Source: a virus
Lineage: Duplodnaviria; Caudoviricetes
Virus record (IMG/VR): IMGVR_UViG_3300047299_000127
Span: 1 to 56,894 of that record
Direction: 5' to 3' (one strand)
Length of the DNA: 56,894 nt
The position numbers and the translations under genes are program-made. Shown piece after piece: positions 11,700-51,135 of this stretch (position 1 is its first letter; each line of letters begins with the position of its first letter). The notes below the pieces were generated by a model. It was given only the letters and a program-made list of their open reading frames with translations, had not been told where the DNA came from and ran no database searches.

Positions 11700-12152
11700 T
11701 CAGAACCCTCCAGGTGCCACCTGAAAACAGGCCACCCCCCTGGCGCGCCACATGTCCACCACCTTCTGGCGGTCATCGAACACAGCCACCAGGCGGCGGC
11801 GGTCGTGCGCTTTCATGGCATCGAGCCATGAGGATTTCAGCTGCTCGTCCGGGGTGTAGTCGCCCTCCACGCGCATGCACAGCGGCACGCCATGGGCGCA
11901 ATCGCCCAGGTGTTCGGCCAGCCAGTCCTGGGTGGGTTGCATGACCTCGGAACTGCGGCCAGACCAGACCCAAACATCGCATCCGGTGTCCAGCAGGCGC
12001 AAGAGCGTGTCGATCACGGGCGTGTTGGGCTCATCGTCCACGCAGGCAGCGAAGAAGGCGCGCCAGTCCTTGGTCTCGCCCTCAACCAAGTGGCGGCGGT
12101 GTTCGATCAGGGCCAGGGTCCCGTCCAGGTCAAAGATGTAGAGCGGTTTCAT
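11700..12152 (-). CDS. HAD-family phosphatase (T4 PNK 3'-phosphatase-like, standalone)
   Basis: FDLDGTLA motif I, SGR, MR..GD..PD...K, FDDR..VV.MWR..G..CFQV. Confidence 0.88.
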   Translation of the reverse strand: MKPLYIFDLDGTLALIEHRRHLVEGETKDWRAFFAACVDDEPNTPVIDTLLRLLDTGCDVWVWSGRSSEVMQPTQDWLAEHLGDCAHGVPLCMRVEGDYTPDEQLKSSWLDAMKAHDRRRLVAVFDDRQKVVDMWRARGVACFQVAPGGF

Positions 12153-30015: not shown

Positions 30016-33000
30016 TCACTTCACCTTCTCGGCCAGGTCTCGCATGATCTTGGTCTTTTTCTGGACCTCGACCTGCACGGCCTCCTGGAACTCATCTTGG
30101 GAGATCCGGTTGGTCTGACGCTGGCGCTTGAGTTGGGCGATGTTCTTCTCGACCTCAGCGATCTCGGCCTGGGCCTTGGCGTTGAGGTTGCGGCGCAGAA
30201 CGTCAGCCGGGTAGCTGCCCAGCTTCACCCCGAAGGATGAAGCCACGGCCTGGGCCACCGACATTTCACGCCCAAACGGATCGGTGCGGCCCTGGGTGGC
30301 CTCCACCACGCCCGTGGTGGCGTAGGTGCCCGGCAGGCCCAGCACATTGGGCGCAAAGGCCTTGTACAGGTGATCGGCCACCTTCTCGGCCTTCTGCAAC
30401 GGGGTGTCGGTGTCCAGGGTAATCGGTTTTCCGGTGAATGCCGACTTGTTGAACACCACTTCGCCAAACAGCACCAGCGGACCGCCAGGCATCATGCCCG
30501 GCAGGACCGGCACGGCAGCTTGGCCAGCGCCCACGTCAAACACATCGCCTACCGGGATGAAGCGGCGGATGTCCAGATAGACCGGCGAGCCGTGCTGATC
30601 GTTCCAGGGCATGCGGATGAGCTTGGGCACCATGCCCCAGATCTTCCCGGCCTTCTCTTCGGGCAGCAGCTTGCGCTCTTCATCGTCGCCATCGCCACCG
30701 GCCAGCATGCCGCCCAGCGCGTTGAGCGCACCGGCCAGCATCATCAGCTTCATGAGCTTGTGCGGCTTCTTGCCCGCGATCTCGGCCAGCATGGGCACAG
30801 CGCGGTAGGTGAAACTGATGAACGGCCAGGCCGACTGGCGCATCGCCTGAATCCACGGGGCATTGATGTGGTAGTCCAGGAATGAGCGGCGCGAGGCCTT
30901 GCCTGCATCGATGTCGGTTGCGCCTTCTTCCTTGGCCTTGAGCCAGGCAGCCAGGCGGAAAACATCGTCCTCGGCCTGGTACAGGTCGATCAGGCTGCTT
31001 GCCTCGGTACCGATGGCCTTGCCGGGCTTAGATCCCTTGAAGGCCTCCCAGGCTGTCGGGAAACGCAGCATCAGCGCGTTTTGCAGCGCCGACATCACGC
31101 CCACCTCAGCCTGGGCGGACTGCGCACCAGTGGCGGCCAACTCCTGCTCCAGCTTGGCCAACAGGGGCTCCAGCTGGTCCTTGGCGATCTCGTTCGTCAC
31201 CCATGAACCCACATCACCGCCCGAGTCGGTGTAGCGGTTCAGGATCTCGCGGGCGGCCTCGCGGTCGGCAATCCCGGCCTTGGCCAACTGGTTGCCCAGG
31301 TTGCCCAGCGCGCCCTTACCCTCACGCTGGCTGGCGGCCAGGATCAGGCGCAGGGACTTGGCCACGTGAGCCGCGCCCACGTCATGCCAGTCGGCCATGA
31401 CGAAGTTGGACATGACGTTGTTCATGTGCACGGCAGGCGACAGTGCGGTCTTGGCGGTTTTCCACATGCTCAGGATCTGGGCATAGGTGTCACCGAAAGG
31501 CTTGAACTGGCCATTGACCACCTGGCGCAGGTCATTCCAGACCGGGCCAGGCAGGTAGCGGCCAGCGAGCTTGCCGTACTTGGCCACGTTGGTGCCGCCG
31601 ATCTTGGTGTCGGGCACGCGCACCCACTCGCCGGGCTTGAAGGTGTCGCGGTACCGCTCAGAGGCCTCCACCACCTCGCCGGGGATGGTCTCACCTTCTT
31701 TCATGGCGTAGCTGTGCGCCATCCACTCCAGATAGCGGCCCACCTCCACGTCATGGATCATGCCGTGCAGTGTCTTGGCGATGGCAAAGCGGGCCTCATC
31801 GATCTCGCCCATGGATTCGCGCTCGTCCTTGGTGAAGTCGCGCCAGAAGATGACGTTCTCGCCCTTAACGTCCCGCACCTCGAACGTGCCAGCCTTGGAC
31901 CATTCCGAGTACTGGCTCGGGATGGTTTCACCGGCTGGCCAGTACGCCACCTCCAGCAGCTTGCCCAGGGCCTTGCCTTCCATGCCTTCAAGCGGCTTGG
32001 TGCCCTCGCCCGATGCGGCGCGGCGCTCCAGGCGCACGAACTTCTCGCCCTTGAGACCTGCATCGGCCTTGCCCTTGACCAGCTTGCGGCCCCACCACTC
32101 GGGCGCTGTGTTCTTGAGCTTGGCCATGGTGGCGGCCTCGGTCAGGCCCCGGCCCTTGTACTGGTCGCCCAGGATGGAAATCACACGGGCGCGCTTGGCT
32201 TTCTCGCCAGCGGTCTGCTCCAGGATGTGCTTGGCGTAGCTGCGGCGCAGGTAAGCGAACTTGTTGGCCTCGTAAGCCTCTGGGCTCAGTTGGCCAAGTC
32301 GGACAGCCTCACGCGAGAGCTGATCGATCATCTTCTGCACGTCCTGCAACACCTTCACCGATTCCTCGGGCAGGCCTTGCATCATGGACACATAGGCCTT
32401 GGGGTCGGCACCGTCCATGTTCATCCACTCGTAGGCCACGCGAGACTCTTCGCGGGTCAGGGTGGAGAGCTTTTCGATCAACTCGCCAGCCTTGCGCAGT
32501 TGGACACGCTGGCGGCCTTGCAGCAGCACGCGCTGATCGATCACCGCCTGGGGCACGCCATAGTCGGCAACCACGCCCGCCTTGATGGTCTCGGGGGTGT
32601 AGCGGTCCAGCAGGTAGCCCGCCCGGTCGTAGATCGCGCCGGTCAGGCGCTCGATGCCGGTGATCCGGGTCAAGCCCTTGGCCAAGGCATCCAGCGGGGC
32701 GCGGCTGCCTGCTTTCTGGCTCAGGATCTCGTCGGCGCGCTCGCGGGCATCCTTGCGGCGCGAAAGCATCACGCCACCCTCTGCCGGGTTCTTTTCGCGC
32801 CACTTGGCGGCCAAGCGCTCAAACAGCGGGTAGTCCTTGGCCAACATGTCCTCGACATCAGCAAAGCCTCGGGCGCGGGCCTCGGTTTGCAGCCACTTCT
32901 CCTGGCGCTCGATGTCATCCTTGAGGGTTGTGGACAGGCGGGTGTCGCCCATGTACCCCACTCGGCGCTCGGGGCTCTTGCCCGCCACGTACTCGCGGGC

Positions 33001-36000
33001 ACCGCGCACCAGTTCAGCGACAAACAGGTCGGCACGCTGCTGCTGGGTCAAACTGCCTTCCAGCAAGTCGCTGAGTTTGTTGGCCAGGTTCGTGAAACCA
33101 TGCTCCAGCAACCAGTCGCGCACCATGACCGTGACCTTGCGCCAGCCCTTGAGCTTGGCCAGTTGGGCGGTCGGGATGTCCACAATAGCCTCTTCCACGG
33201 CCTCGGCAGTGGACATCTTGTTGCCGCGCTTCTGAATGTCGAAGGCTGCCCGGCGCACGTTGGCGTTGTTGGCGTACACCAGCGCCATGGCGGTCTTGAG
33301 GCTATCGCCCAGCAAGGCGCGCAGGCCATAGTGAGCGGCCTCATGCTCAAGCAGCACGTGCTCTGCGCGGTTCATGTCAGAAAGACCTGATGCGAACAGG
33401 TACAGCGCGCCCTCGTGGAATGCGCCTTCAACGTCATCCCAGGCGTCCTGGCGGATGATGTACTCGCGCAGGCCCTTGGGTGCTTTGCTTGGATCTGCCA
33501 GCACCGTCACCTTGGGCATGTTGGGCATCTTGGCCTTGACGCCGCGCACCATGGCATCCAGGGCATCGACGCTCACGCTGCCAGAGGCTGCGCCAGCGCC
33601 GCGAGCCAGTCGGGTGTCCTCGGCGGGCTTGACCTCTGACGCCTCGGTGGCCATCCAGTCCTCGGCAGCCCCGCCATTGGTAGAGACTGCCTTGGTGATG
33701 GCCTCATCGGCGCTGGTGGCCTGCACATCGAAGCCCAGGCCAGAGGCCTTGTTTTCCACGCGCCAGGTCTTGGGCTTGGAATCGAGCGCGATCATGGTTT
33801 CCAGATCGTTGGCTTCCTTCACCTTGTCGGCCAGCATGCCAGCCATGGGGAAGGGCGACTCCAAACGGCTGGCCAGCGCATCGATCTGGGCCTTGGCCTC
33901 GGTGATGCGCTCGCGCATCTTGGCGGGCAGGCGTGCCACATCCGCCACCGCGTTTTGCGCACGCATGGCCACGCCGATGGCGCTGGTACCGGCGTCAGCG
34001 ATCAGCAGCAGGGGGTCAGGCGTGCCCAGCATCACCTTGGTCATGAACTGGCCTGCAACGGTCTCGCCGCCGAAAACGACAGGGAAACCGGAGATCTCGC
34101 CAATGGTCATGGGCTTGGTCTCGCCCTTGGCGGTCAGGTCCTTGTACTTGGCGATCAGGACTTCGGCCCAGTCGGCGCGCTCGGCCAGGGTCTTGCCCAT
34201 GACCTTGGCGCGGAACTTGTCGCCAGACAGGTCCTGCACCATGGCGGCCATCTTCTCGGCCTCGGGCATGCGCTTTTCGTTGAACTCCACGGTTGTGCGC
34301 GCCATGTCGTACTGGGACTTGAAGCGGGCGCGCTGGTCCTCGTGGGCGCGGTACAGGCGCTGGAGTTTTTCGATCTCGGCGCGAGCCCCTGCCAGTTGCA
34401 GGATGCGCGGATCTTCGGCCACCATGGCAGCGGCCAGGTCGTACTGGCTTTGGCTGTCCAGATCCTCCAACTCGCGCAGGTTCGCGTCACCGCTCAAGGC
34501 CTGATCGATGAAGAACTGTTTGGATGCGAGCATCTTCCACATGTTCTCGTCGTAAGTGCCCTTGGCGGCGTAGGCGTACAGCTGCACCAGCGGGTTCTTG
34601 TTGCCCTGGCGCACGATGCGGCCTTCGCGCTGCTCCAGGTCAGCCGGGTACCACGGCGAATCCAGGTGGAACAGGGCTTTGAGGCGTTGCTGTGCGTTCA
34701 CGCCCGTGCCCATGTTCTTGCTGGAGCCCACCAGCAGGCGCACCCGGCCAGCGTTCACGTCCTTGAACAGCTTGAGCTTGTCCGCCGACTTCTTGTAGTC
34801 GGACATGAAAGCCACCTGATTCATGGGCACACCAGCATCGCGCAAGCGCTTCTCGAACCAGGCGCGTGCATTGAAGCCGCGATTGGCGGCCACGCCCTCC
34901 CCAAAGCCCAGGTCAGAAAACACCATCGTGGCCGCGCCCTTGTTGGGCTCGACGTTGCCCGCCTTGTCTCGGTACTCCATGTCCTTGGTCTCATCCAGGA
35001 CACGAATCACGTCATCGATCATGCGGTTGAGCTTGGAGTCCGGGTCACTGGGCAGTGTCGGGTCCATGAAACGCATGTCGATGGCCGCCAGGCGGCCATC
35101 GCCAATGATGCGGATCATCGGGTCAGGGTTGTTCGGCTCGTCCTTGGTCGGCTTCCAGGCGCGGGACTTCTCCACACGGGCAGAGAGTTCAGACTGGTAC
35201 CCGTCGTAGGCCTCGGTCTTGGGCGTGACGATGATCCTGCGAGATCCACCCTCCACTTTCGGGCGCTTGTCGCCCAGCAGTGCGGCCAAGGTGTCCGAGG
35301 TCAAAACGTCCGCATACTCGCGGAACATCTGGGTCAACTCGGGCACGTTCACAAACTTGCTGAACCGGGTCACGGGCTCATACTTGCCAGCGGCATTGGG
35401 CTCCAGCACCGTGCGCTCGCGCCCGAACATCGAGGCCCAGGAATCGAAGTCCTCAATGCCGCGATCTTCCAGGGCCTGGCGGTCCATGAACTTCTGCACC
35501 GTGTACAACTCGGCCAGGGTGTTGGTCACGGGCGTGCCCGATGCCAGGACCAGCGAGCGGCCCGGATTTTTCTGCTCCAGGTAGCGGGCCTTCATGAACA
35601 GGTCAAAGGAACGGGCAGAGCCTTGCGGGCTGATGCCCTTGACCTGGCGCGAAGTCGTGAAATCGAGCTTGCGGAACTCGTGGGCCTCGTCCACGTAGAG
35701 CATGTCCACGCCCAACTCATCGAATCGGACGTTGGTGTCCTTGCCGGTCGATGCCATGGCAGCTTCCAGCTTTTGCTCCATGTTCTCGATCTGCTTTTCG
35801 ATCTGCTTGATGCGTGGGGACTTCTTGCCGCCCTTGCCATCCTCGGCCTCGGCCTCTTCTAGGGCAGCGCGCATGTAGTCCAGCTGCTCCTCGATCATCT
35901 GGCGCTTGAATTCGGGGTCCAGGTCCAGCAGCTTGAAAGCGCTGTGCGTGATGACCACGCCATCGAGGTCAGACAGAGCCACACGCGAGACAAAGCGGCG

Positions 36001-39000
36001 GCGGTTGTCGGTGTGGAAGTTCTTTTCGTCGGCCACCATCAGGCGGGCAGCCGGGTAAAGCATCTGCCACTCGTGCGCAAACTGCTTGAGCATGTGGTTG
36101 GGCACCACGATCATGGGCTTCTTGATGAGGCCAAGGCGCTTTTGCTCCATGGCCGAAATGACCATCTGGAAGGTCTTGCCCGAACCCACGGCGTGCGCCA
36201 GGTAGGTGTTGCCGCGCTGGATGATGCGCCAGGCCCCGCGCTTGACGTGATCGAACACGCTGAACGCCTTGGAGGTGCCCGGCAGCGTCAGGTGGCGACC
36301 GTCAAAGGATCGCGGCACCGTGGTGTTGAAGGTGTCGTTGTAGATCCGCACCAGGCTATCGGTGCGCTCGGCATCCTTCCAGATCCAGTTGCCGAAGGCC
36401 TCGCGCAGCGCTTCGAGCTTTTGGTTGGCGGCTTCGGTACCGGCAGCATCAAAGACCGTGGTCTTGTCCTTGCCGTAGCCCTGGCTCTTGGTGATGCGGA
36501 TGGGCCTGCCGGTCAGGGCATGCTCCATGATGTCCGTCACGTTGCGGTCAGCCGTGCCCCAGTCGGCGGTGGCCTGCATGGTCTTGCCGCCACTTGTCTC
36601 CTGAACAGACCATTGCTTGGTGCGCTCATTCCAGGACACCTCAGCACGCACACCGGCCAACTCGCGCAGGAATTGGCTGTACACAGCGCCGGGCACCCAG
36701 TTCATGCCAATGCCCACGTTGATCTGGCTCGGGGTCTTGGGCGCGGGCTGGGCAGCTTCCAGGGCGGCCACATTGCGCTCAAAGCGCTTGTCGGTCTTGG
36801 CAGCCGTGCGGGCTTCATCCAGTTTGCGCTTGACGTTGCCGCTCAAGTACTCGTCGGCAGTCACCCACCCAGCGGCAGGGTCCTCATAGATGGCAGAGCC
36901 CAGGGCCTCGATGGTCTCGGCCTCGGTCAACCCCACGCGCTGGGCGATCAGGGGAATGTCCACGTGCCCCACATCGTTGAGCGATGACAGCATCGCATCG
37001 ACGGGGGTGTTGACGCTGGCGGCATCGGGCTTGCCCAGCACGCGCTCGGTCAGGAAGGCGCTGGGCTTGATCTCGCCCGTGTCCTCGTTGATGGTCTCCA
37101 GCGCCGCGACCAGGGTGTAATCCGGGTCATCCTCCAGCTTGCGCAGCAGGGTGTAGACGCGCACCTGGGTTTCATCGGTGTAGGTCTCGCCCGTGTCCTC
37201 ATCGACCACCTTGGACTTGACGGACTTGAGCGTGAATTGGTTGATCTGGCCGTGCTTCTTGGTGAAGTCGGCATAGGCCTTTTGCAGCGCCTTGATGCTG
37301 GTTTCCCAATCGCCCTCGTTCAACTGGTCGTAGTGCGCCTGCTTGAGGGCATCGCGCAGCGGCACGAAGTCCTTGACCAGTTGCACATCGGCCTGCGAGC
37401 GCAGTTCCACGCGCTGGCCCACCCCACCCTCGCGCACCATCAGCGCGCCGGAGTCGCTGACGTAGTAGTTACCCTCTTTCTTGGCCTTGGGGTTGAAGTC
37501 GATCTCGCGGACCTTGGCCGCTTCGGCGGAAGATCCGCGCTCGGCGGTGTAGATGCCCTCGGGCAGGCGGTTGATCGCCTTGTCGAACAGGGCCTCGATG
37601 TCGCCATCGAGCGGCGCGACCGTGTATTCGCGGTCCTTGTACATGGAGCCCGCATCGGAGTGCGTGCCCAGCACCATGTCAGGGTTGGCCACGAAGTACT
37701 CGTTGATGTTGTAGTCGTTGCCGTTGACCTTGAGCGGCACCGACTTGCCCCAGGACTGCGCGCCCTCAAAGGTCTCGCCGGGCACTTTCTTGCGCAGGAA
37801 GATCACATCCGTGACCACCTCGGTACCGGCGTTTTGCTTGAAGGCGGTTTGCGGCAAGCGAATCGCGCCCACCAGGTCCGCCCGGTCGGCCAGGTACTGG
37901 CGCGCCTTGTCGTCGAGCTTGTCCATGGTGTAGCGGCTGGTGACGTACACCACCAGGCCGCCCGGCTTGGTGCGATCAATCGACTTGGCAAAGAAGTAGT
38001 CGTGCAGGCTGAATGCCCGCTTGGCGTACTCTGGATCGCTCAGGATCTTGGTGCCGGAGAACGGCGGGTTGCCGACCGACACGTCATAGAAGTTCTTGGG
38101 CAACTTGGAGTCCACGAACGACTCAACCAGGATGCGCTCGTCGGGAAACAGTTGCTTGAGGATTCGGCCCGTGAAGGAGTCGAACTCGATGCCGGTGTAG
38201 ATCGAGTTGGCGGCCATGGCGGCAGGCATGAGGCCTGGGAACACGCCAATGCCAGCGCCCGGCTCCAGGATGGCCCCACCCTTGAAACCCATGCGGTCCA
38301 AGGCGCGCCACATCGAGCGCACCACTTCCTTGCTGGTGTAGTGGGCGTACTGGGTCGAGCGTGAGGCCTCGGCCCATTCCTTCTCGGACATGGACGCCTT
38401 GAGGCGGTTGCGCAACTCCACCCACTTGCGCACGCTGGGCTCGGGCTTGGCCTTGTCCAGCATCTCGCGGGTGATGTTGCCCGCCGTGTACCAGGTCAAC
38501 TGCGGGTTGCGGTATTGCAGGACCCGGAAGGCAGGCGCGTACTCGCCATATCGGGCGTTTGTCAGGAACGGGCGATCACCCAGGGCGGCAATGGCCTCGT
38601 CGTAGTTGGTCAGTGCTTCGGCGGCCTTGTCCAGCTTGTCGCCAAACAGATTGTTGGCGATCTCAGACGCGCCCCAGCCAATGAACTTGGCCAGCTTCGC
38701 CTGCTCTTCACGGGTGGCCTGGCGGCCATCCTTCTCCAGCGACAGCAGCAGTTCAATGGCTTCGAGGTTCTGCTCGGCCTTCTTGAACCAGCTGCCCTCG
38801 TAGGTCAGGTCGGAGGCTGAGAAGGCGTAGTTTCGTCCGGACTTTGCGGGGATGTCCCGTCCTGCGGGAACTCCAGCATTTCGGCCAGCACGATCTCGCG
38901 GTTGAGGCTGCTTGCCGTTCGCATCCTGGCCGCGCACTCCATCGGCCCCAGCTTGTCCCACCCCTCCTTGATCCGCTGCGTTTGCGTCAGCGTCACCACC

Positions 39001-42000
39001 TGCGAAGAGATCTGATCCGCCAGGTCCTGGGCGTACTCGTTGAGTTGGCCGCTTGCCGCCAGGCTGCGATACAGCGCGGGTGCCTTCTCCTTGATCGCGT
39101 CCTTGACCAGCGTTATCGTTTGCATCTTGATCTCCAGGTTTCTCGCCAGTATATCCATTTCCGGATAATTGTGGTACAGTTGTGTCGAGAGGTGTTGAAA
39201 TGAGAATCCCAGACGAATTCCCGGACGGTTGCCGTTTCGTACCGACCTTCGGCGGTGACTGGTTTGTTGAATTCCCTGATGGCAGGGTGTTCAAACTGGC
39301 CGACGATGGCGTGTCGCTTGCCCCTGCACGCGAGCTACCGGCTGGCGGCATATCGGTCAGCGCTGATCCGGCTGGCTTCTTGGCCGCCGCTGCAAACGCT
39401 GCATCGTAGAACTCGGTCATCGACTGACCAATCTCGCGCCCAAGTGGTGATTCCTTGGGCGCTTCTCTTTGTGCCTCGTACAGCTTGTGACCCTGGCCCT
39501 CTTTGGCAGCCAGCATCTGCGGCACGTTGATCTGGATCTCACCGATCACGCCGTTAGGCATCACCACGTTGACCAGCACATCGGCATAGCCTCCGTAAAC
39601 CTGGCGATCTTCGGCGGGCAGTTCGCCGCCACTCCAGGTCATGGCAAATTCGCTGGTGCGGTTTTTTGGCTTGCGCAGGAGCTTGAATTCTTTTTCGATC
39701 TCGTCAAGCACCTGCTGGGCCTCGGCGTAAGACTGCACAACGATGGTTGATCGCAGCATGTCCTTCATGCCGCCAACATCGAAGTTTTCTTCAGTGACCA
39801 GCTTCTCCACAGACCGCTTCAATCCCTTGATGGGCGCGATCATTTGGCCGATGGCATTGGTGCGACCAGCGATGTCGATCACCTTCTGGTCATACTCTGC
39901 CTTCACATCCTCAGCCTTGCGAATGATTGGCGTCAGCATGCCCTCTGCGCGCTGACGCTCTTCATTCGTGATCGCAACGGCGGGGCGATCCTTGTAGTAC
40001 TTCTCGACGTAGCCATCGGCACGCTCAAGCACACCGGCATCCATGAAGGTGTCAACGCTGGGCGGGGTGAAGTTGTCCCGCTTCATGTCATACGGGCGGC
40101 CATCGATCATGGCGGCCTTGGGCTTGTCTGCCAGGTTGGCCAGCGCATCACCGAACAGGTCTTGCTGGCCCATGCGGGCCTCGGCAGCGGCAAACAGATC
40201 GTCCACACGCTGGGCCGACTCGCGGGCCATGGCCTGCTCGGCAGCCTTGCGGTACAGATCGGTGCCGATCTTGTTCCAGAAGGTCTTGAGCTTCGGATCG
40301 TTCTTGAGCGCCTGCTTGACGTAGGCCACCAGGTCCTTGAGGCTGTAACCCACTTCCTTGATACCGGCCTCCATCAGGCGGATCAGCGTGGGCATGAGGT
40401 CCGGGGTCTTTTCCGGGACCATCATCAAGCGTGTGTGCTTGGTGGCGATCATGGCCAGATCAGCCATGGCGTCCTTGAAGTCTTGGCGGGCCTGGGCACG
40501 CGCCTGGTCGGGCGCAGCACCCTCGGAGCGCTTGACACTCGGAAACTGGAAAGTGGCGGCCATCAGGTCACGGATGGGAGCGTCGAACTCGATCACCTTG
40601 ACCGGCTCATTCATGGCCAGAGCAGCCACCCACTGGTGATGCCCGTCCAGCACGTAGCCATCGGCAGAAGCCAGCACGGAGCGGTCAACGCCATCGCGCA
40701 CCTCTTTCCAGCGCTCGGCTTTCTTGCTTGAAAACTCGGCCTGGGTGGGCTTGAGGTCAGACGCAGAGCGCTCGACTGTCTTGTGCTCGATGCCCTTGCC
40801 TTGCAGGAACTGGATCAGCGCGCCGCGATGCTCGCCCTTGACCTGGGGCATTTCGGCGCGGGGAATGCCGATGGTGCCCGTGTCGGGCGGGAACATCACC
40901 CATTCGCTTTGCTCGCCTGCTTCGGTTGCGGCAGCGGCGCGGGCAGCCCCATCGCCTTGATCGCCGCCGCGATTGCCCGGCGCATCTTGGGATTGCTGTC
41001 CACTTGGCGCATCAGCTTGCGCACCTTCTCCAGGGTCTCGCCGCTGGGTGTCTTGGGCATTGTTGCCATCGTCGTTTCCTTGTGCAGATTTCAGGAGGTC
41101 GGCGCGTGCCGGTGCGGTGTCGGTGTCGCCAAAGATCGAGCCTTGGCTGGGGTCTCCAGCAGCTTCCAGGGCCTCGTAGTAGCGCTGCACGAACTCAGCA
41201 ATGCGGCGCGGGCTGCGGATGTTGTCGGCCAGCAGGGTCAGCAACTGGGCAGCCTCGGGCGAGTACTTCGCGCCCGTGAGGTCGCCTTGGCCAAGTTCGT
41301 CGGCCACGCTCCAGCCCTTTTCCTTGAGGGCGGACAGACCTTCAACGGCAGACAGCAGATCCGGCGCGATGTCGGCCTCGTACAGGGTCCCGGCCTGCAT
41401 GCGCTCGCGGGAGGCGGCAATGGTCGGGGCCACACGCACCAGCGCCTTGGTGACGTTGCGCAGGTTGTCATCCATGCTCTCGGTCATGCGGCGCAGCGTG
41501 GGCGAGTCGCCGTAGGCCTTGGCCAGCACGGCGTTTTGGATGCGGCGATAGCCGAACGTGGACAGGCGGCCATCGGACTCCACCATGTCCGACTGCTCAG
41601 TGATCGGCAGCATGGCCATGAACTGGCGGATGAAGTCGTAGGAGGTGGCAAAGTCACCGGCATCGTCGGGATTCAGCCCCTCCAGGGAAGCCAGGCGCTT
41701 GGAGTCCGACAGGGCCTGCTCGCTGGGGCTCATGCGCTGCACGGTCGAGGCGTTGGCCTGGCGTGCAAACTCGGCACGATTGACTTGTGTTGAGCGAACC
41801 CGCACCAACACAGGCTTTTCCATGGCATCGACGGATTCGGGTGTGATACCAAACTGGGCGGAGTTCTCGCGCAGCCAGGCCTTGTAGTCCTCGGCCTTCT
41901 GGCCATTGGCCTGATACACGCGCTTGAGGGCGATGGTGCGGGCGTTGCCCGACTCCACCAGGCCATCAGCGCCAACAATCGGCGCGCCAGTGGCAGCGTC

Positions 42001-43566
42001 AGCAGACAGGCCCAGGCGTGCTGGGTCGAGCTTTTGCACGATGCTGGAGACCTGCAACTCGCTGGCCGAACGGCTGCGGTCGCGGGGCTGCAACTCCTGG
42101 GGATACAGACTGTTGGGGCGCAGGCTCTCGTCGTGCGAAGTCACCAGGTCAGCGGCATTCATCAGAGCGTACTGGCCATCGAGCTTGACGCCTGCCTCGG
42201 TCGAGAAGCTGGTAGATGCGCCGGGCTGGGCCTTTGGCCAAGACTGGGCGATGCTGGCGCGCTCGCTGGCCAACTCCTGGGCTTTGGTGGCCAGTTCGGC
42301 GCGCTCCTGGTCGAAGGCGGGACCGTAGCCGTTCTCGGCGGTCAATTCCTGGGTGCGCTCGGCAATGCGCGAGATCTCACCATCGATCTCGCCCACACGG
42401 TCCAGGGCAGTGAGCGATACCGGCGTGCGCAGGGCTTTCTCGGCCTCGGTCGAGTCCCCTACCCCAACGGCTTCCACGCTGGTGGCGGTTCCTCGCGCTG
42501 GGGTTGCTCCATCGACTGGGCTTGCTGCGCCAGCAGGTCCTGGCGCTTGCGTTGTTTGACCTTGCGGGGTTTGTCCCTGGTCGGTTCCTTGCGTTGGGTC
42601 TTGCTCATTGATTCGATTGGGCAGTGCGTTGCGGGCAGCCGAATACGTGTTCATGCCGCCGCCCATACCGGCACCGGCCACCATGCCCTGGGCAGCGGCC
42701 TCGGCCACACCCTCGTCCCACGGCTTGCCCAATGCCAGGTTGGTGAACACCTGTTCTTGGGCGGACTGCGGCAGTTCCTCCAGCACGCCCTCTTTGAACG
42801 TGCCCTTGGCGATCTCTTTGCCAGCCTGCACCAAGCTCTGGCGCTGCGCGCCGCCCATGCCTGCAACGGCTGCGCCGACTTCGGCATCGCGGAAGCCAGG
42901 AATCTTGGACGTGACCAGGCTGATGGCCGCTGTGCCCAGGCCGCCAGCAACGGCGGAAGGGGCGGTATCGGTGTAGTCGCGGCCAGCCTGGCGGCCAGCC
43001 TCCTGGATGCTGCCTGCGGTCATCGCGCCTTCGGAGGCTGCGCCAATGCCTGTCAGCTTGGCGATGGTTGCGGGCTTGGCCAAGAAAGCGGCAGCCTCAG
43101 CGGTACCGGCCTTGATGCCAGCTGAGGCCAGCATCTTGGAGGCGGCAGCGCGCACGGCAGCAGCACCGCCCAACATCATTGGAGTGGACTCAACAATGGA
43201 GCCCACAGCGGCGCTGGGGTTCTGCACCAGGGCCTTGGTCGTGTCCACAAAGCCCTTGGCCCCAGCAACCTCACGATTGGCCTGCTGGCGCGGATCGCTG
43301 TAAAAGTCGCTCAGGATCTGCTTGGTTTGCTCTGGGTCGTAGCCAATGGCCCCCAGGCCCTTGCCCACCAGGTTGCCGGTGGCCAGATCTGCCAGGCCTA
43401 CGGCAGACTCTCCCAGCCCGACAACGCCTTTGGCCAGATCGATGCCGGAGTCGGCAATGGCCTCGCCCCAAGTGCGATCGCGCTGCTCTGGTTTTTTCTT
43501 CGACTGCTCTTGGTCCGGAACAAACCGACCACTAGACTCAGAATTTTCGTCCGGTACAAATGCCAT
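30016..43566 (-). CDS. 4516-aa DarB-like polyvalent virion protein: ddrB-ParB, ParB-like, RelA/SpoT-like NTase, N6-adenine MTase, SNF2 helicase, HExxH metallopeptidase, C-terminal LPD-like region
   Basis: LQPRDR..GAPIV..VESGNAR; [13 protein letters not shown]; K..R..EK..D..R.TI..GY.D..EIQ..GHKLYE; EPGAGIG/NPPF; [28 protein letters not shown]; HEAAHYGL. Confidence 0.9.
38805..39125 (-). CDS. Nested TnpV-like protein (106 aa), out of frame within the giant gene
   Basis: GGAG SD; [21 protein letters not shown]...REIVLAEM resembles TnpV; the host frame here is a low-complexity linker. Confidence 0.65.
   Translation of the reverse strand: MQTITLVKDAIKEKAPALYRSLAASGQLNEYAQDLADQISSQVVTLTQTQRIKEGWDKLGPMECAARMRTASSLNREIVLAEMLEFPQDGTSPQSPDETTPSQPPT
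39152..39167. promoter_or_regulatory. Operator TATCCATTTCCGGATA inside the giant gene, between divergent nested ORFs
   Basis: Matches the cI/cro operator family; local AT-rich patch with TATACT (minus) and TGGTACAGT (plus). Confidence 0.7.
39200..39409 (+). CDS. Nested antisense protein (69 aa) directly behind the RelA/SpoT-like domain; candidate immunity protein
   Basis: GAGGTG SD; globular-looking [33 protein letters not shown]. Confidence 0.6.
   Translation: MRIPDEFPDGCRFVPTFGGDWFVEFPDGRVFKLADDGVSLAPARELPAGGISVSADPAGFLAAAANAAS
40896..41069 (-). CDS. Nested out-of-frame ORF (57 aa) after the ddrB-ParB region
   Basis: AAGGA SD; [41 protein letters not shown]; GC3-rich codons in this frame; translated by hand. 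Confidence 0.55.
   Translation of the reverse strand: MATMPKTPSGETLEKVRKLMRQVDSNPKMRRAIAAAIKAMGLPAPLPQPKQASKANG
42459..42608 (-). CDS. Nested out-of-frame ORF (49 aa, basic) in the first linker of the giant gene
   Basis: [28 protein letters not shown]; host-frame codons turn A/T-rich at third positions; no clear SD. Confidence 0.4.
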   Translation of the reverse strand: MSKTQRKEPTRDKPRKVKQRKRQDLLAQQAQSMEQPQREEPPPAWKPLG

Positions 43567-43617: not shown

Positions 43618-45261
43618 TTACTGCCAGGTGCCGGACTTGCCGCCAATGGTGATGCGGTCGCCCTTCTTGATCTTGCCCTCTTTGGCGGCCTTCTCTGCAT
43701 CAGCCTCGCTGGCAAAAGACACCCCGGCAGCCTTGGGCGCTGCGGGCATGGCCCAGCGGCCATTGGCCTTGGCATAGCCCATGGTCTCCATCACCTTGTC
43801 GGCGGACGCCACGGCATCCTCGGGCTTGGCCATGTTCTTGATGCCAGCGGCCACAAATTCTTTGTGCAACTCGCCGGGGTCCTGGGTTTTCTTGGTCAGG
43901 GCCATTTCGAGCCCTGAGCGCATGTCGGGCGCAAGGCCTGCATTGACCATGGCCTGCGCCAGCTTCACCTCGGAAGGCGCGTTCTTGCTGTCCGGGTTGA
44001 TGTCGATGACGCCACGGCGCACAGCCTCCAACTCGGCAGCGGTCGCGTTCGGGTTGCGCTGCTTGAACAGTTCCACGGCAGCGGTAGCCTTGGCTGTCTT
44101 ATCGTCCTTCTCGGTCGTGGCAGCGGTGGCGGCCCGTGCATCGGCGTTCTTGGACAGTTGCAGCTGCTCATTGCCGCGCCGGTTGGTCTCGCTCTGGTAG
44201 AAGCGATTGAACACCTCACCGGCTTTGCCCAGCGAGTCCAGTTCGGCCACGGTGTTGATCGTGCGGGTGTTGCCCTGGCCATCCTTGAACTGAATGACAC
44301 GGGTCTCCACGCCATCCTTGTTCTTGACCATCTTGTCAGAGATCACGTTGGCCGGATCAAACTGCACCTTGCCGGTAGCGTTGAAGGACTTGGCCACCTC
44401 CTGGATCGAGCCGCCAGACTGGGCCAGGCGCAGGGTCTTTTCGTAGCCCTCGCTTTGCACCTTGTTGAGCAGGTCGGTGAACTCGCCAAAGGCTTTGGCA
44501 TCGAGCTTGCCGAAGCGGGCATCGTGGTCGATCAGCGCGGCGCGGTCGGCCAGCGCATCGCCCACCGAGTACTCGGGGCGGGCAGGTGCCACAGGGGCCA
44601 GGCCCAACTCGGGGCCAGTCTTGCCGGAGGCCTTCGCGCCCTCGTAGTCGGCTAGGCGCTTTTGGTAGTCGGACATGGCCTGGTTGTAGGACTGCTGGTT
44701 TTGGCCAAAGCGTGAGGACGAAAACAGGCCCTTGCGCCCTTCCTCGTATTCCTTTTGCTTGGCCACTTCCTCGTCCTGGCGCTCCCAGTTCTTTTGTTCG
44801 CGGCCAAAGCGCTGCTGTTCCTGGGTGAAACGTGCTTCGTCGCGCTGGCCAGCAATGGCTTGCTGCTCCATCTGCATGCCGCGCACGGGGTCAAACTTCT
44901 TGATGACACCGGCCATGGCCATGGTCTTGGCGTTGTTGGCCTGGCTGGGCGTCATGGTGCCAGCCGTGCGCTGGCCCATGAAGTCGGTCACGCCCTGCTG
45001 GGCGATCACGCCAGTCTCGCCGCCTGCCTTGGGGGTGACGGTATAGCCCTTCTTGCCCTCGTCATAGGCGATGTCGTACTGGCCAGACTCGGCGGCAGCG
45101 CGCAACTGATCGCCCTGCTCTGCCGTGAAGCCTTCGCTTGTGGTGGGCTGCTCGCTGGCGATCTTGCGCAACTCGGCGTCCTGCAAGACTTTGCTCACAG
45201 TGCCGTAGCCCTGATTGAAGCCCTCGAAAAACTCTGCAACTCGGTTTCGACGTGCCATCAC
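43618..45261 (-). CDS. Putative internal virion/ejection protein
   Basis: 547 aa, helical and Gln/Ala-rich; between the ejection protein and the giant protein. Confidence 0.65.
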   Translation of the reverse strand: MMARRNRVAEFFEGFNQGYGTVSKVLQDAELRKIASEQPTTSEGFTAEQGDQLRAAAESGQYDIAYDEGKKGYTVTPKAGGETGVIAQQGVTDFMGQRTAGTMTPSQANNAKTMAMAGVIKKFDPVRGMQMEQQAIAGQRDEARFTQEQQRFGREQKNWERQDEEVAKQKEYEEGRKGLFSSSRFGQNQQSYNQAMSDYQKRLADYEGAKASGKTGPELGLAPVAPARPEYSVGDALADRAALIDHDARFGKLDAKAFGEFTDLLNKVQSEGYEKTLRLAQSGGSIQEVAKSFNATGKVQFDPANVISDKMVKNKDGVETRVIQFKDGQGNTRTINTVAELDSLGKAGEVFNRFYQSETNRRGNEQLQLSKNADARAATAATTEKDDKTAKATAAVELFKQRNPNATAAELEAVRRGVIDINPDSKNAPSEVKLAQAMVNAGLAPDMRSGLEMALTKKTQDPGELHKEFVAAGIKNMAKPEDAVASADKVMETMGYAKANGRWAMPAAPKAAGVSFASEADAEKAAKEGKIKKGDRITIGGKSGTWQ

Positions 45262-46379
45262 TTCACCTCTTCAAATTCGATGCCCAGCATCTGGTAGTTG
45301 ACCGAGGCAAAGCCCACGTCGTCGTACACCACGGCATCCGGGAACCGGGGCTCAACCTCATCGGCCATGACGCCACGGAAGCGGGTTGGGTTGCCGGTGT
45401 AGTTGAACTCGTACAGGTTCAGGCCCGTGGCCTCGTCCTTGCCCACCAAGACGATGTTTTCCTTGAGGCGGCGGTCGGAGAAGGCGGTGTACAGGCTGGC
45501 AGCGCCACCCAGCACAGAACCCACACCACCAAGGCCGCTGTCCATGTCGGCCACCGCCTTGGCGTAGTTGCCCTGGGCGTTCAGCACGCCAGTGAGGCCC
45601 GTCATGGCGATCTGGCGGCCATTCATCGTGGTGTTCGCGCCGGTGGTCATGCCAGACATCAGAGCCCCGCCTGGGGCCATCTGGTTGGTCATGGCGCTGT
45701 TGCCGCTGTTGGTACCGGCAGAGTAGAAGCTGGGCGCGCTCGATGCCATGCCCGAATAGGTGTTGAGCGTGTCGCCCATGCGCGCATAGGACTTGTCCAC
45801 AGCCTGCGTGCGCCCGGTGTTGGCGGCACCTGCCTTGGCCGTTGCTGCGCCCAGGTCCATCACGCCCTGCATGGCGGCAAAGCGCCCGCTGTTGGGGTTG
45901 ACGCTCATGCGCGTCATGGATCGGTTGGTCTGCTGGCGCTGGTTGTCCAGGGCGGCGGACACATCGGCCACGTTTTCCGTGGCCGCCTTATCCATCTGGG
46001 TCTGCAACTCTGGCGAGACCTTGCCCATGGCGATGTCGCGCATGGCCTGCTGGAGCGGTCGGCCTTCGGTCTTGAAGTTCTCGAAGCTGTAATTGCCCTG
46101 CTCGTAGGCCTGGTCCATGTTGCGCTTTTGAGCGTCAACGATGGGGCGGGCAATCTCGATGTTTTGCTCGTACTGGCGGCGCGACTCGGCCATCTGTTCG
46201 CGGCCAAGCTGGGCAGAGATCTCGGCGGCTTCCTTGGATGCCTGGGCTACGGGGGTGTAGTCCGGTGGCGGTGGGGCATCGCCGCCCATGTCCAAATGGC
46301 ACACGTTGCGCCAGTTGTGGCCGTGAAGCTCGCGCAGCGTCTGCTGGCGTTCTTCAAATCGTTCGCGCTTGCTCTTCAT
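45258..46379 (-). CDS. Ejection (DNA transfer) protein with C-terminal S74 intramolecular chaperone
   Basis: Basic leader then MGGDAPPPPDY; Gly/Ala-rich segment; SDRRLKENI...LYEFNY...GVMADEV. Confidence 0.78.
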   Translation of the reverse strand: MKSKRERFEERQQTLRELHGHNWRNVCHLDMGGDAPPPPDYTPVAQASKEAAEISAQLGREQMAESRRQYEQNIEIARPIVDAQKRNMDQAYEQGNYSFENFKTEGRPLQQAMRDIAMGKVSPELQTQMDKAATENVADVSAALDNQRQQTNRSMTRMSVNPNSGRFAAMQGVMDLGAATAKAGAANTGRTQAVDKSYARMGDTLNTYSGMASSAPSFYSAGTNSGNSAMTNQMAPGGALMSGMTTGANTTMNGRQIAMTGLTGVLNAQGNYAKAVADMDSGLGGVGSVLGGAASLYTAFSDRRLKENIVLVGKDEATGLNLYEFNYTGNPTRFRGVMADEVEPRFPDAVVYDDVGFASVNYQMLGIEFEEVK

Positions 46380-46827
46380 TCAAATGCTCCTTCACGTAGT
46401 CGGCCACGCGCTCGGGGATCATCACGGGCATGGCCTCGGCCACGATCTCAGCGCCCTTGTCCAGGCCGTTGAGGGCACCGATCAAGAACACGGCGACATT
46501 GGCCACGGCGTAGCGCAGGAAGTGGGCAATTTCGACCTTGTGGCCATCCCCCGACTGCTCCATGCGATTGGCTGCCAGGTATCCAACCATAGAGGTCATG
46601 AAAATGGCCCGCAGATCCGCCTCGAAACGGCGGTACACGGGATTGGCCGGTAGGTACAGCAGCAAATTGGCCATCAGGCCATTCACGTCCACCGGCTTGT
46701 CGCGGTCGATCAGGTCATCCCAGGCATGGGCAATGAACACCACCCGCTCGTACAGATCGAGCGCATCACGGTCGCCAGCGAACCAGCGCAGGCGATCAAT
46801 CGGCAGGGGTCGGGCAGCATCCAGCAT
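46354..46827 (-). CDS. DDxxD isoprenoid synthase/prenyltransferase-like protein
   Basis: HAWDDLIDRD Asp-rich motif in an all-helical protein; start codon uncertain. Confidence 0.55.
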   Translation of the reverse strand: MLDAARPLPIDRLRWFAGDRDALDLYERVVFIAHAWDDLIDRDKPVDVNGLMANLLLYLPANPVYRRFEADLRAIFMTSMVGYLAANRMEQSGDGHKVEIAHFLRYAVANVAVFLIGALNGLDKGAEIVAEAMPVMIPERVADYVKEHLNEEQARTI

Positions 46828-46839
46828 GGCAAAGAAGGT

Positions 46840-46854
46840 TGCCATGCTTGCCAC
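46840..46854 (-). promoter_or_regulatory. Late-operon motif GTGGCAAGCATGGCA
   Basis: Exact copy at the head of the ejection-protein operon. Confidence 0.6.
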
Positions 46855-48233: not shown

Positions 48234-48494
48234 TCACTCCGCCACGTAGACCTTGACGCTCACCGTGACAGCCGGGAGATCGCTTCCATACACCTGGCCC
48301 ATGGCCATGATGTAGACATTCCCGTTCACAACCTTCGGAAAAATGAAGCGCACGCTGTTGCCTGCGCGTTGAACCACGTGACTGCTGGCCGCTGGAACGC
48401 CATCGACCTCCAGCATGAGAATCGGGTTTGGGATGCTGGTGTAGCCCACATAGATGTTCTCTATGATCCCGGCGACGATCTCTGCGCTACCCAA
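48234..48494 (-). CDS. Small tail protein, probable C-terminal half of a split gene
   Basis: TTG start overlapping the upstream stop; ends LPAVTVSVKVYVAE. Confidence 0.55.
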   Translation of the reverse strand: MGSAEIVAGIIENIYVGYTSIPNPILMLEVDGVPAASSHVVQRAGNSVRFIFPKVVNGNVYIMAMGQVYGSDLPAVTVSVKVYVAE

Positions 48495-49041
48495 TTTCCA
48501 CCCCCGCAGCGTCAGCGGAGTACTTCACCCCCAGGGTGTAGATCTCCATCGCCCGCTCGTAGTCCATCGACTCAATGGCAGATACAGCGGGCAGTACAAA
48601 CTCATTGAACATGCGCTCATAGATTTGGCGCGCATCCTCACGCTGGCCAATCGCCTCAACGATTCGCGGAGCCATCAGGTAGTAGTCCGCCACCTTCATG
48701 CACCGCTCCACATCGGCCAGCATGTACTTGTCGCGGAAGTAGCGCAGCGTGGTCAGGATGTGGCCATCATCCTCAAGCCCCATGGTTTCCACGCAAGCCT
48801 GGGTGATGAAGCAGCCGCCACAACCACCATCGGACCAGGTGTAGTACTCGCGTGCCTTTGCCGACAGCGTGACGTTCGTAGGTCCAATGGTGCCCTTCAA
48901 CTGGAGGTATGGCAGCGAAGTGTGAAAGTACACATCGTCCAGGTTTCCGCTCGGATTGGTCCGGGCGTTGCTCGCATTGCCATAATTGACAATGCTCACC
49001 GTCCCGGCATTCCCATCGACGTAAAGCTGCTTACTGGGCAT
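48487..49041 (-). CDS. Tail-protein N-terminal segment fused to a CFI-box-CTERM domain
   Basis: NLDDVYFHTSLPYL then GGCFITQAC...LRYFRDKYM...YY..AP.IV..I. Confidence 0.78.
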   Translation of the reverse strand: MPSKQLYVDGNAGTVSIVNYGNASNARTNPSGNLDDVYFHTSLPYLQLKGTIGPTNVTLSAKAREYYTWSDGGCGGCFITQACVETMGLEDDGHILTTLRYFRDKYMLADVERCMKVADYYLMAPRIVEAIGQREDARQIYERMFNEFVLPAVSAIESMDYERAMEIYTLGVKYSADAAGVEIG

Positions 49042-49552
49042 AGCGGTACACCTTCAAAGCCTTGGACTGGTCTAAGTCATCGATACAAGAAAACTTACCG
49101 TTTGGGTGGTGAAGAATCCTAGTGCCATCGATGCACACGCCAATATGGCCCATGCGCTCGTAAAAGATCAGGTCGCCGTGCATTGGCTGACTCGCTTCGA
49201 CAAAGCCAAACTCGCGCACAACATCCTCATAGCCAAATCGGTTGAGTTCCTGGTACCGGCGTCCAACAAGCTGGCGCAGCTGGGCAACCATGCTGGTTCC
49301 GTAGTTGCGGTCCATCCACTCAACCACCAAGCCCGCACAGTCGGCGCGCATAAAGCGGTACGCTCTTCCCCGGTACTCTTCGGGCGGACATACTGGAATA
49401 GCCTGCCTCTCCTGGATGAGCAACGTGTAGGGCGCAACGGTCTTGCTGACAGTTAAAAATCCGTCAGGAGACAGCACGACATCGCCAGCAACGATGTCCG
49501 CACGTTGGCCAATGTTGGCATCCCAGTTGGTTGGTTCATCGAATTGCGTCAT
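49031..49552 (-). CDS. NlpC/P60 peptidase (lambda gpK-like C-terminal domain)
   Basis: YRGRAY...DCAGLV; GDLI; HIGV; ILHHP. Confidence 0.82.
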   Translation of the reverse strand: MTQFDEPTNWDANIGQRADIVAGDVVLSPDGFLTVSKTVAPYTLLIQERQAIPVCPPEEYRGRAYRFMRADCAGLVVEWMDRNYGTSMVAQLRQLVGRRYQELNRFGYEDVVREFGFVEASQPMHGDLIFYERMGHIGVCIDGTRILHHPNGKFSCIDDLDQSKALKVYRYAQ

Positions 49553-51135
49553 ACCGAGATCGAGATGTACTTGTTGACCGTATCGATGATGAAAAGGCCA
49601 TCGGTGCTGCGCACAACGCCGCGCACGGTTGCATTCTGGAACTCAGCAGATCCGTCCTTGGTGATTTGCCAGCCACTGGAGCCAGACACAAAGTTGTTGG
49701 ACTGGATGACGTTGCCGATCTTGGCGTTGGAGATCGAGCCATCAGCAATACGCGCCACGTTGATGTAGCCGTAGGTGATGGCCGCCGCATCGACGTTGAG
49801 CAGCTTGGCGTCCAAACTACCGGTCAGGATGCGGTCTGCGCTGATGTAGCCCGCATTGATCTTGCTGGCGTTGAGGTTGGCCACCTTGGCGTCATCGACC
49901 GCCAGGTTGGCGATCTTTGCGTTGGTGATGGTGCCGTTCTGGATGAAGGCATCGCTCATGTACACGCCCACCGGCACGTTCACGCCGTTGATCGTCACGG
50001 GCGTGGTGCGCACGATGAAGGGCATGGCCGGGGCCACGCCTGGGCCTTCAGGGCTGGCGATGTAGAACGAATCGGAGCGGATGGCGAAAGCACTGGTGGG
50101 TGTTGCGCCGTTGGCCGTGGATGCCAGGCCAAAGCCCGACACATAGCCGTTCACATCGGTCTTGACCGTGTACCTGGCAAAAAGCTGCCCAGTCTCGGAG
50201 ACCCGCACAGTCTGCTCGGTCTGGATCGCTGCCGTGTTGGAGTTGACCGTGGCGGCCAGGGTCTGGCGTGCCTGGGCCTCGGCAGTGTCGGCATTGGCCC
50301 GCGCTGTCGCCTCGGTCTGAATGGAAGCGGCCAAGTTCGCGTCCGCCGTATTCACAGCGGCGGTCAAGGTCGTGATCTGGCTGGCCAAGCTGGTGTCGGC
50401 ACCTTGGCGCGCAGTCTGCTCGGCCAGGATCGCCGCGCCGCGAGCGTTGGCCTCGGCCAGCAAGCGGGCGTTGACGCTACCCGCGCCGTTTCCGTCCACC
50501 AGGTTGATGCGCTCGGCCAGGGACTGGTAAAGTTGGCTCTCGGTGATCTCGCCAGTCAAGGCAGCAAGCAGCGTGGCCACATCTTGGCCAGTCACTGCCT
50601 CCAGGCCATTGGTGCCGCCAGCGGGTGCCACGCTCAACACCCCGTCATTGGTCTCCCACTTGATCCACAGCCGCCAGGTCGTGGCAGGATTGCTGGCCAG
50701 CGCCCAGATGGTCCCCGAGAACTGGCCAAGCTCGACTGCATTGTTGAACGTGGGCAGAGGCTGGCCAGCCGTGTGCGTCACGCCGTACAGGCGCGTGCGC
50801 AGGTGCCCGTGGCCCATCAAGTAGCCCGGTTGGTCATGCTCAATGAACACATGGCTTATCGCCGCGCTCACGGCAAAGCCCGTGGGGGTGGGTGGCGGGG
50901 TCAGGTCGGGCTCATCACCCTGGGCCACGGCGTCACCAGGCTCCAGCAGCGGAACACCTCCACCAGGCCGCCAGCCCTTGGCCAACTTGATGATGCCGTT
51001 CTCGATCAGGTCGCGCAGCGTCAGGCCTCGGTCCAGGGGGTTGCCCTGCTTACCGAGGTAGGTCATCAGCGTTTCGCGCACGCGCTGGGGAAAGTTCCCG
51101 GCTGATGGTGGCGGCAGATCGTTGCGGTTGGTCAT
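49549..51135 (-). CDS. Central tail fibre/tip protein (DUF1983/TipJ-like C-terminus)
   Basis: Coiled coil; NGYVSGFGLAS...FAIRSDSF; AFIQNGTITNAKI repeats; GWQITKDGSAEF. Confidence 0.82.
   Translation of the reverse strand: MTNRNDLPPPSAGNFPQRVRETLMTYLGKQGNPLDRGLTLRDLIENGIIKLAKGWRPGGGVPLLEPGDAVAQGDEPDLTPPPTPTGFAVSAAISHVFIEHDQPGYLMGHGHLRTRLYGVTHTAGQPLPTFNNAVELGQFSGTIWALASNPATTWRLWIKWETNDGVLSVAPAGGTNGLEAVTGQDVATLLAALTGEITESQLYQSLAERINLVDGNGAGSVNARLLAEANARGAAILAEQTARQGADTSLASQITTLTAAVNTADANLAASIQTEATARANADTAEAQARQTLAATVNSNTAAIQTEQTVRVSETGQLFARYTVKTDVNGYVSGFGLASTANGATPTSAFAIRSDSFYIASPEGPGVAPAMPFIVRTTPVTINGVNVPVGVYMSDAFIQNGTITNAKIANLAVDDAKVANLNASKINAGYISADRILTGSLDAKLLNVDAAAITYGYINVARIADGSISNAKIGNVIQSNNFVSGSSGWQITKDGSAEFQNATVRGVVRSTDGLFIIDTVNKYISISV

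Follow-up and report, generated by a model that had tools for sequence, protein, structure and literature searches.

A Small DDxxD Protein Encoded Directly before the First Ejection-protein Gene of a Temperate Podovirus: a Candidate Occupant of the IVP-A Slot

For decades it has been an open question what part is played by the small gene that stands before the ejection genes of podoviruses (T7 gp13, P22 gp14); its product is needed for infectious particles and, in the published passages that treat it, is reported to be absent from virions. What fills this place in a phage in which neither family is recognizable, and what might such a protein do there? The question is raised by the virus record IMGVR_UViG_3300047299_000127 of IMG/VR, the whole of which (56,894 nucleotides) was analysed and is called the window here. 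The window contains no match to PF11039 or PF11090, the families of the P22 and T7 proteins. Directly before the gene for its first ejection-type protein it carries a small gene, here designated X, whose product has a DDxxD motif and is all-helical in its structural model. An original prediction for this locus had proposed that X is a prenyltransferase that replaces an acyltransferase and modifies the ejection protein. On balance, we think it probable that X occupies the IVP-A slot without homology to its known holders and that, during assembly, it acts on the leader and glycine run of the first ejection protein through a site of the Mg2+/diphosphate type.

Gene X and Its Coupling to the Ejection Gene

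Four features define the locus in the window.

46354..46854, minus strand: gene X, predicted all-helical product, phrog_21390 family; 166 residues from GTG, 163 residues from the ATG at 46845
46696..46722, minus strand: codons W42-K50 (WDDLIDRDK), the acidic motif, located at the C terminus of the model's first long helix (residues 26-47)
46387..46393, minus strand: Shine-Dalgarno sequence GAAGGAG for the 373-residue gene, within the 3' end of gene X, 7 nucleotides before the ATG at 46379
45258..46379, minus strand: first ejection-type protein, 373 residues; phrog_8003 ("virion structural protein") 2.2e-36, phrog_6121 2.2e-20 and phrog_4287 ("DNA ejection protein") 3e-14

The locus had been described previously as encoding an all-helical protein of about 157 residues that carries HAWDDLIDRD and overlaps the start of the ejection gene. 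This description is correct, and the length given corresponds to a start at the third Met. The stop codon of gene X (46354-46356) falls inside the 373-residue gene, giving an overlap of 26 nucleotides, and the AlphaFold2 model of X is all-helical with a mean pLDDT of 90.4 and a pTM of 0.82. The 163-residue version, which is the database form P0001, is used for numbering, so that HAWDDLIDRD comprises residues 40-49. The protein is net acidic, with 24 Asp and Glu residues versus 17 Lys and Arg residues.

The coupling extends to related loci. In the IMG/VR and Achromobacter phage CF418P1 loci with a called downstream open reading frame (75 loci, the start being taken as the first ATG, GTG or TTG of the open frame), the downstream frame begins 4-58 nucleotides before the X stop codon in 69. 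Of 50 loci tested, 34 have downstream of X a protein matching phrog_4287, 8003 or 6121; on the upstream side the neighbour varies, and 39 of 44 lack a PHROG (at three loci the second upstream gene was used). By tblastn, the close relatives L002-L012 keep the order of X, the 373-residue protein, a 547-residue protein and a giant protein. When loci were collected through the ejection protein, X adjoined the ejection gene in all 18 that bear X. The constant partner of gene X is the downstream ejection-protein gene; X itself is small, lies immediately before the first gene of this kind and is coupled to it.

The X Family and Its Conserved Residues

X matches phrog_21390, a family with no function assigned (E 2.2e-17, residues 22-140 against profile positions 14-134 of 153). 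An exhaustive HMMER search at E<=1e-3 gave a family of 466 representative clusters at 50% identity, and a word-indexed search gave 69 X-family proteins among 188 candidates. No match to X was found in Pfam or NCBIfam, and the sequences of the PDB gave 0 matches at E<=10. Bacterial genome assemblies contain 36 X loci, including those of Limnohabitans, Halomonas/Vreelandella, Achromobacter, Cupriavidus and Caballeronia.

Conservation was assessed in 89 diverse members that are 24-55% identical to the window protein. D43, D47 and R111 are invariant (100%), and D44 (98%), D49 (94%), N68 (93%) and W42 (91%) are nearly so. They are followed by E96 (89%), Y150 (87%) and N93 (75%), and positions 145 and 153 are acidic in 96% and 81% of the members, respectively. 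Because the Asp residues and W42 are kept at these levels across the family, the HAWDDLIDRD motif, as judged from the alignment, is not a chance occurrence; the conservation of the Asp residues, on which the original prediction depended, is thereby upheld. The conserved WDDLIDxD sequence, at the C-terminal end of the helix formed by residues 26-47, has the form of a first Asp-rich motif, DDxx(xx)D. As a second metal-binding motif, neither a further DDxxD nor a (N,D)Dxx(S,T)xxxE (NSE/DTE) sequence was found in X.

Comparison of the X Model with Isoprenoid Synthases

The X model was compared with 48,161 chains by VIA-align. Among the matches listed, 22 of 50 are isoprenoid synthases, including every one with more than 103 aligned residues; the others listed are partial matches to helical hairpins. 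A second X-family model, about 25% identical to the first, likewise gave class I synthases in 22 of the 50 matches listed, and the matched ranges of those chains run from approximately residue 35-50 to 180-220 and include the first Asp-rich motif. For both models, the only whole-domain matches among those listed are to class I isoprenoid synthases, and the matched region extends roughly from the helix bearing the first Asp-rich motif to just before the second.

The trans-isoprenyl diphosphate synthases and small subunits compared with X include 5h9d_D, 8v0f_A and the Pfam families PF00348 and PF07307. The best structural neighbour is 5h9d_D, the small subunit of Staphylococcus aureus heptaprenyl diphosphate synthase, which we take to be non-catalytic; 8v0f_A, the prenyltransferase domain of Penicillium verruculosum copalyl diphosphate synthase, is another. 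The closest neighbours of X would thus presumably include non-catalytic prenyl-synthase small subunits that act by dimerizing. HEPPP_synt_1 and polyprenyl_synt are among the named clusters nearest to X in the ESM Atlas, with scores (0.78-0.79) that according to the tool often arise by chance. Foldseek gave no match to the PDB at E<=0.001, its weak hits being BAK/BCL2, designed helical repeats and FPPS/GGPPS, and in BFVD it found uncharacterised phage proteins only. A Pfam scan of 23 X-family members at E<=10 returned neither PF00348, PF07307 nor a related family.

Two more specific relationships were considered and rejected. A hhalign comparison with a 38-sequence IspA/IspB profile placed the X motif on the first Asp-rich motif (P=0.041, probability 1.3%), but the match was lost when the motif was masked (P=0.68), and a reversed control came close to it (P=0.12). 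X might also have been half of a duplicated synthase fold; the tandem relative P0146 (model pLDDT 77.6) has no whole-length synthase match, and only its second repeat aligns with synthases, as a single truncated core.

The original proposal is supported in part, and the isoprenoid synthase fold that it postulated is not refuted: the whole-domain matches favour it, whereas the Foldseek and sequence-profile comparisons do not. As judged from the models, X probably resembles the class I fold; any homology is unproven and any equivalence as an enzyme putative. If the assignment holds, X is an unusually small protein with isoprenoid-synthase architecture, with a domain of about 145 residues, roughly half the length of the known catalytic class I enzymes (at least 260).

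Occupants of the IVP-A Slot

In P22, gene 14 (151 residues, PF11039 DUF2824) lies directly before gp7, and in T7, gene 13 (138 residues, PF11090 Phage_T7_Gp13) lies directly before gp14; X is in the same slot. PF11090 is named "probable scaffold protein" in Pfam. In passages of Hardies et al. (2016, PMC4819975), IVP-A is described as a nonstructural assembly protein that is needed for morphogenesis, matches acetyltransferases and is not retained in virions; P22 gene 14 is given there as an IVP-A homologue, as it is in part of PMC10386132. Homology of X to P22 gp14 was rejected (hhalign probability 0.8%; X has no PF11090, PF11039 or GNAT match).

The occupants of the slot were sorted at 80 loci that were collected through the ejection protein and not through X.

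Family c1, about 140 residues, the commonest: 31 of 80 loci
Family c2, about 153 residues, a true GNAT (PF00583, 5.4e-10, one representative scanned): 20 of 80 loci
X: 18 of 80 loci
Large proteins: 6 of 80 loci
A fourth small family: 2 of 80 loci
Unresolved: 3 of 80 loci

Family c1 (for example L165:2501-2929; loci L165-L240) has a weak GNAT match (E 0.14, from 1 of 31 members scanned against Pfam) and a hhalign probability of 40.6% against c2. X is not homologous to either family by the same method (0.5-0.7%). The original prediction implied that X and GNAT genes exclude one another at this locus. This holds for the canonical GNAT c2, which is present in 0 of 118 X-bearing sources; it does not hold for the slot as a whole, since in 6 of the 118 X is directly preceded by c1. 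The proposed replacement of an acyltransferase is in keeping with the alternation of X and GNAT, whereas its identification as a prenyltransferase is unproven and a minority possibility.

The slot is modular and does not impose a strict choice of one occupant, and some occupants are also joined to one another. P0191 consists of X fused to c1 (hhalign probabilities 98.3 and 100). Among the 15 longest of 150 representatives listed, three (P0085, P0182 and P0209) are fusions of X with a class I S-adenosylmethionine (SAM) methyltransferase (Methyltransf_11), for which the nearest NCBIfam entry is the DVU_1556 family, below its cut-off. P0146, among the same 15, is a tandem duplication of X with two WDD[LI]IDKDK motifs. 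A family-profile search returned no longer fused relatives, a result that the tool itself rates as weak evidence.

The Partner Ejection Protein and Its Leader

Three segments of the 373-residue protein are relevant here.

46290..46379, minus strand: N-terminal leader of 30 residues, MKSKRERFEERQQTLRELHGHNWRNVCHLD, alignable with leaders of the MLIPNKFNGYSRDGRRLYHL type in relatives
46260..46289, minus strand: MGGDAPPPPD junction after the leader (followed by Y), the window form of the glycine run of relatives
45261..45479, minus strand: Peptidase_S74 (intramolecular chaperone) region, from the SDRRLKENI motif to the C terminus

The leader followed by MGG-DAPPPP, recognized in the original prediction, is present as MKSKRERFEERQQTLRELHGHNWRNVCHLD-MGGDAPPPPDY, and the leader is basic. 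In approximately 120 related ejection proteins, most N termini have the same plan, a leader of 15-35 residues whose last positions are aromatic or hydrophobic, a GGGG-type run and then PEYAKPY (PPPPDY in the clade of the window). Among ejection-protein N termini, no Trp, Cys or CaaX-type acceptor is conserved. The arrangement suggests that the junction of leader and glycine run may be a general processing site.

The Peptidase_S74 end of the protein was overlooked in the original prediction; it matches PF13884 at residues 301-350 (4.6e-08, 33.7 bits, cut-off 22). Peptidase_S74 domains are normally found on trimeric tail fibres and spikes, from which they cleave themselves, and by analogy the mature protein would be trimeric and about 300 residues long. 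In more distant relatives some 320 N-terminal residues are retained and the C terminus is replaced or extended, to a total of up to about 1160 residues.

The type of leader was compared with the slot occupant, using 60 X-linked N termini sorted by script patterns and another set of loci sorted by eye. Hydrophobic leaders of the MFK/VNPIKF type occur in 29 of 60 and 12 of 15 X-linked proteins versus 1 of 46 linked to c1 or c2. Leaders of the MSYSRRQL type (about 15) accompany c1 or c2 and never X, and leaderless starts with Met-Cys (MCAP, MCSS, MCGP) accompany c2 only, in 9 of 19 distinct c2-linked ejection proteins (loci L177, L189, L193, L202, L206, L217, L226, L232 and L239). An N-terminal Cys beside a gene for an acyltransferase fold may be an acylation site. 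T7 gp14 (L159:3729-4319) likewise begins with MCW. The xKFNGY...RRLY type, with which the window leader aligns, is found with X, c1 and c2.

Proposed Role of X and Alternatives

In the explanation that we favour, the slot is that of a small gene translationally coupled to the gene for the first DNA-ejection (pilot) protein, and X would fill the place of T7 gp13 and P22 gp14. Its Asp cluster (W42-D43-D44-x-x-D47-x-D49), together with R111, N68, E96, the acidic position 145 and Y150, could form a site of the Mg2+/diphosphate type. X would act during assembly on the leader and glycine run of the first ejection protein, either modifying it or holding it for incorporation, and would be a substrate-specific tailoring or assembly factor and not a virion component. 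The natural fusions of X with a SAM methyltransferase and with c1 lead us to favour a catalytic role.

Several observations weigh against this explanation. At 16 of the 50 loci tested the downstream protein has no ejection-family PHROG (15 have no match, and 1 matches muralytic or tape-measure families). The fold scores of X lie in a range that, according to the comparison tool, generic helical packing can produce, and the similarity of X to prenyl synthases in sequence profiles is, by the comparisons above, not significant. The sole cultured carrier in the GenBank set is Achromobacter phage CF418P1, which has the same synteny, and this phage is not mentioned in any paper found by the literature search. 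The co-occurrence of X and c1 means that X does not simply replace each of the slot proteins one for one. The leader type tracks the slot occupant only loosely; the correlation is suggestive only and is not independent evidence because the loci are phylogenetically related and the types overlap between slot classes.

The alternative that we regard as the most serious, while still unlikely, is that X is a non-catalytic chaperone or scaffold, whose WDDxxDxD face and conserved Arg, Asn and Glu residues dock the leader, keep a membrane-active protein soluble and deliver it to the procapsid, X then being released. The slot has a precedent for this in an assembly protein that passages of PMC4819975 describe as absent from finished virions, and the Pfam name of PF11090 points the same way. 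The window leader is basic where X is acidic, but most X-linked leaders are hydrophobic, so that a simple match of charge fails. The co-variation of leader type with slot occupant is compatible with docking, as is the presence among the structural neighbours of small subunits that we assume to be non-catalytic. An invariant DDxxD and Arg, with conserved Asn, Glu and Tyr, across members as little as 24-30% identical to the window protein is, however, more typical of a metal or ligand site, and the methyltransferase fusions suggest chemistry. A miniature prenyltransferase, using host prenyl diphosphate through DDxxD-bound Mg2+ to attach a lipid to the processed N-terminal part of the ejection protein and so target it to the membrane, would account for the position of the invariant DDxxD(xD) at the end of a long helix, as in the first Asp-rich motif of trans-prenyl synthases, for the restriction of whole-domain matches to isoprenoid synthases in two divergent models, and for the synthase clusters of the ESM Atlas, for what their often fortuitous scores are worth. 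The other occupants of the slot include acyl-transfer folds, and ComQ, an enzyme of the polyprenyl-synthase family, prenylates the ComX peptide. We nevertheless consider this proposal improbable: X has half the length of the catalytic enzymes, lacks the second Asp-rich or NSE/DTE motif, has as its best neighbour a non-catalytic small subunit and shows no significant sequence relation to synthases, while the ejection-protein N termini offer no conserved acceptor and the literature search found no paper tying ejection proteins to prenylation.

A broader scheme, to which we attach slightly less weight still, is that pilot proteins are leader-bearing precursors tailored before packaging in the manner of ribosomal natural products. 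The leader and glycine run would recruit the slot enzyme, be it a GNAT, a methyltransferase fusion or X, and X would be a miniature transferase with the class I isoprenoid-synthase fold that uses an Mg2+-bound diphosphate donor (for example host prenyl diphosphate) to add a hydrophobic group that aids entry through the envelope. Least probable of all, and in our estimate very improbable, is that X has no connection with ejection proteins and is a moron or host-takeover enzyme carried in the late operon, such as a hydrolase of nucleotides or diphosphates or a protein that binds a prenyl synthase of the host. The link between X and the ejection protein comes from gene context, and its resemblance to the small subunits found in heteromeric prenyl synthases might indicate that X pairs with a synthase of the host. 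Morons, however, are usually found at module borders with their own signals, whereas X is kept before the ejection gene across related loci, mostly in overlapping frames and adjacent to it in every X-bearing locus collected through that protein, and alternates in one slot with known genes of the IVP-A type.

The favoured assignment of X to the IVP-A slot extends earlier work, since the slot and its substitutes are already in print in the part of PMC4819975 that deals with them. A literature search, with the supplementary files of cited papers lying outside it, found no paper on the X family, its motif, the prenyl-synthase-like fold, the GNAT exclusivity or the fusions. The search also found no paper that joins ejection protein, podovirus and acyltransferase or lipidated, or a phage ejection protein with a prenyltransferase. 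A single lineage of ejection proteins fills the slot interchangeably with a true GNAT, a second small family or the DDxxD protein, and there are fusions among them or with a methyltransferase; interchange and fusion of this kind speak for chemistry performed on the ejection protein and not for a scaffold alone. Candidate residues (D43, D47 and R111) and a candidate substrate segment, the junction of leader and glycine run, are now defined.

Other Features of the Window

The 56.9-kb window is a complete virus record with terminal repeats. It contains an integrase gene and genes for a P22-type portal, Phage_capsid_3, an SU10 adaptor, a small terminase, RecT/YqaJ and a lambda-P-like protein, and is that of a temperate podovirus of the P22-portal type. 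Gene X belongs to a minus-strand late operon, the last product of which has 4516 residues.

30016..43566, minus strand: giant virion-type protein of 4516 residues at the end of the operon, with ddrB-ParB, an Eco57I-type methylase motif and SNF2/helicase-C domains
43618..45261, minus strand: second ejection-operon protein, 547 residues, syntenic in close relatives
48487-49041, minus strand: small open reading frame downstream of the NlpC/P60 gene
49031-49552, minus strand: NlpC/P60 peptidase-domain protein of 173 residues in the tail module, directly after the lambda-J-type tail-tip fibre protein
49549-51135: lambda-J-type tail-tip fibre protein, upstream of the NlpC/P60 gene

The 547-residue protein matched no PHROG or Pfam family, and the small open reading frames between the NlpC/P60 gene and gene X (184, 86, 230, 154 and 70 residues) gave zero family matches. 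In phage CF418P1 the equivalent of the giant protein has 2684 residues and carries the annotation "putative portal", apparently in error. A HAD phosphatase domain of the polynucleotide-kinase type (PF25109, 2.5e-25) is encoded at 11700-12152 on the minus strand, adjoining the small terminase gene.

Comparison with Known Ejection Systems

The partner of X has a layout like that of P22 gp7, in which a short leader is followed by a Gly-rich stretch, MLYAFTLGRKLRGEEPSYPE-KGGKGG. The first 20 residues of gp7 are removed by the host protein OpdA, according to a GenBank note. Leader cleavage is thus recorded for gp7 and putative in the window, and the Peptidase_S74 C terminus is a feature of the window protein. 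BLASTP gave no significant similarity between the two. At the other end of the operon, the 4516-residue protein resembles the methylase-bearing giant IVP-D of Bcep22-type phages and of the F116/H66 group, the latter as described in passages of PMC4819975; those passages record no identifiable IVP-A in the F116 group, which carries such an IVP-D.

T7 gp13, P22 gp14 and X are all products of small slot genes directly before the gene for the first ejection or pilot protein. They differ in kind, since IVP-A is reported to be acetyltransferase-like, whereas X is modelled as all-helical and carries DDxxD. The closest parallel to X in this respect is phiRIO-1, which in the same part of PMC4819975 carries an unrelated IVP-A substitute, gp39. 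Like X, gp39 (96 residues) is a small, non-homologous substitute in the IVP-A slot. A relationship between the two was rejected (hhalign probability 0.2%), and X would therefore be a further, separate IVP-A substitute.

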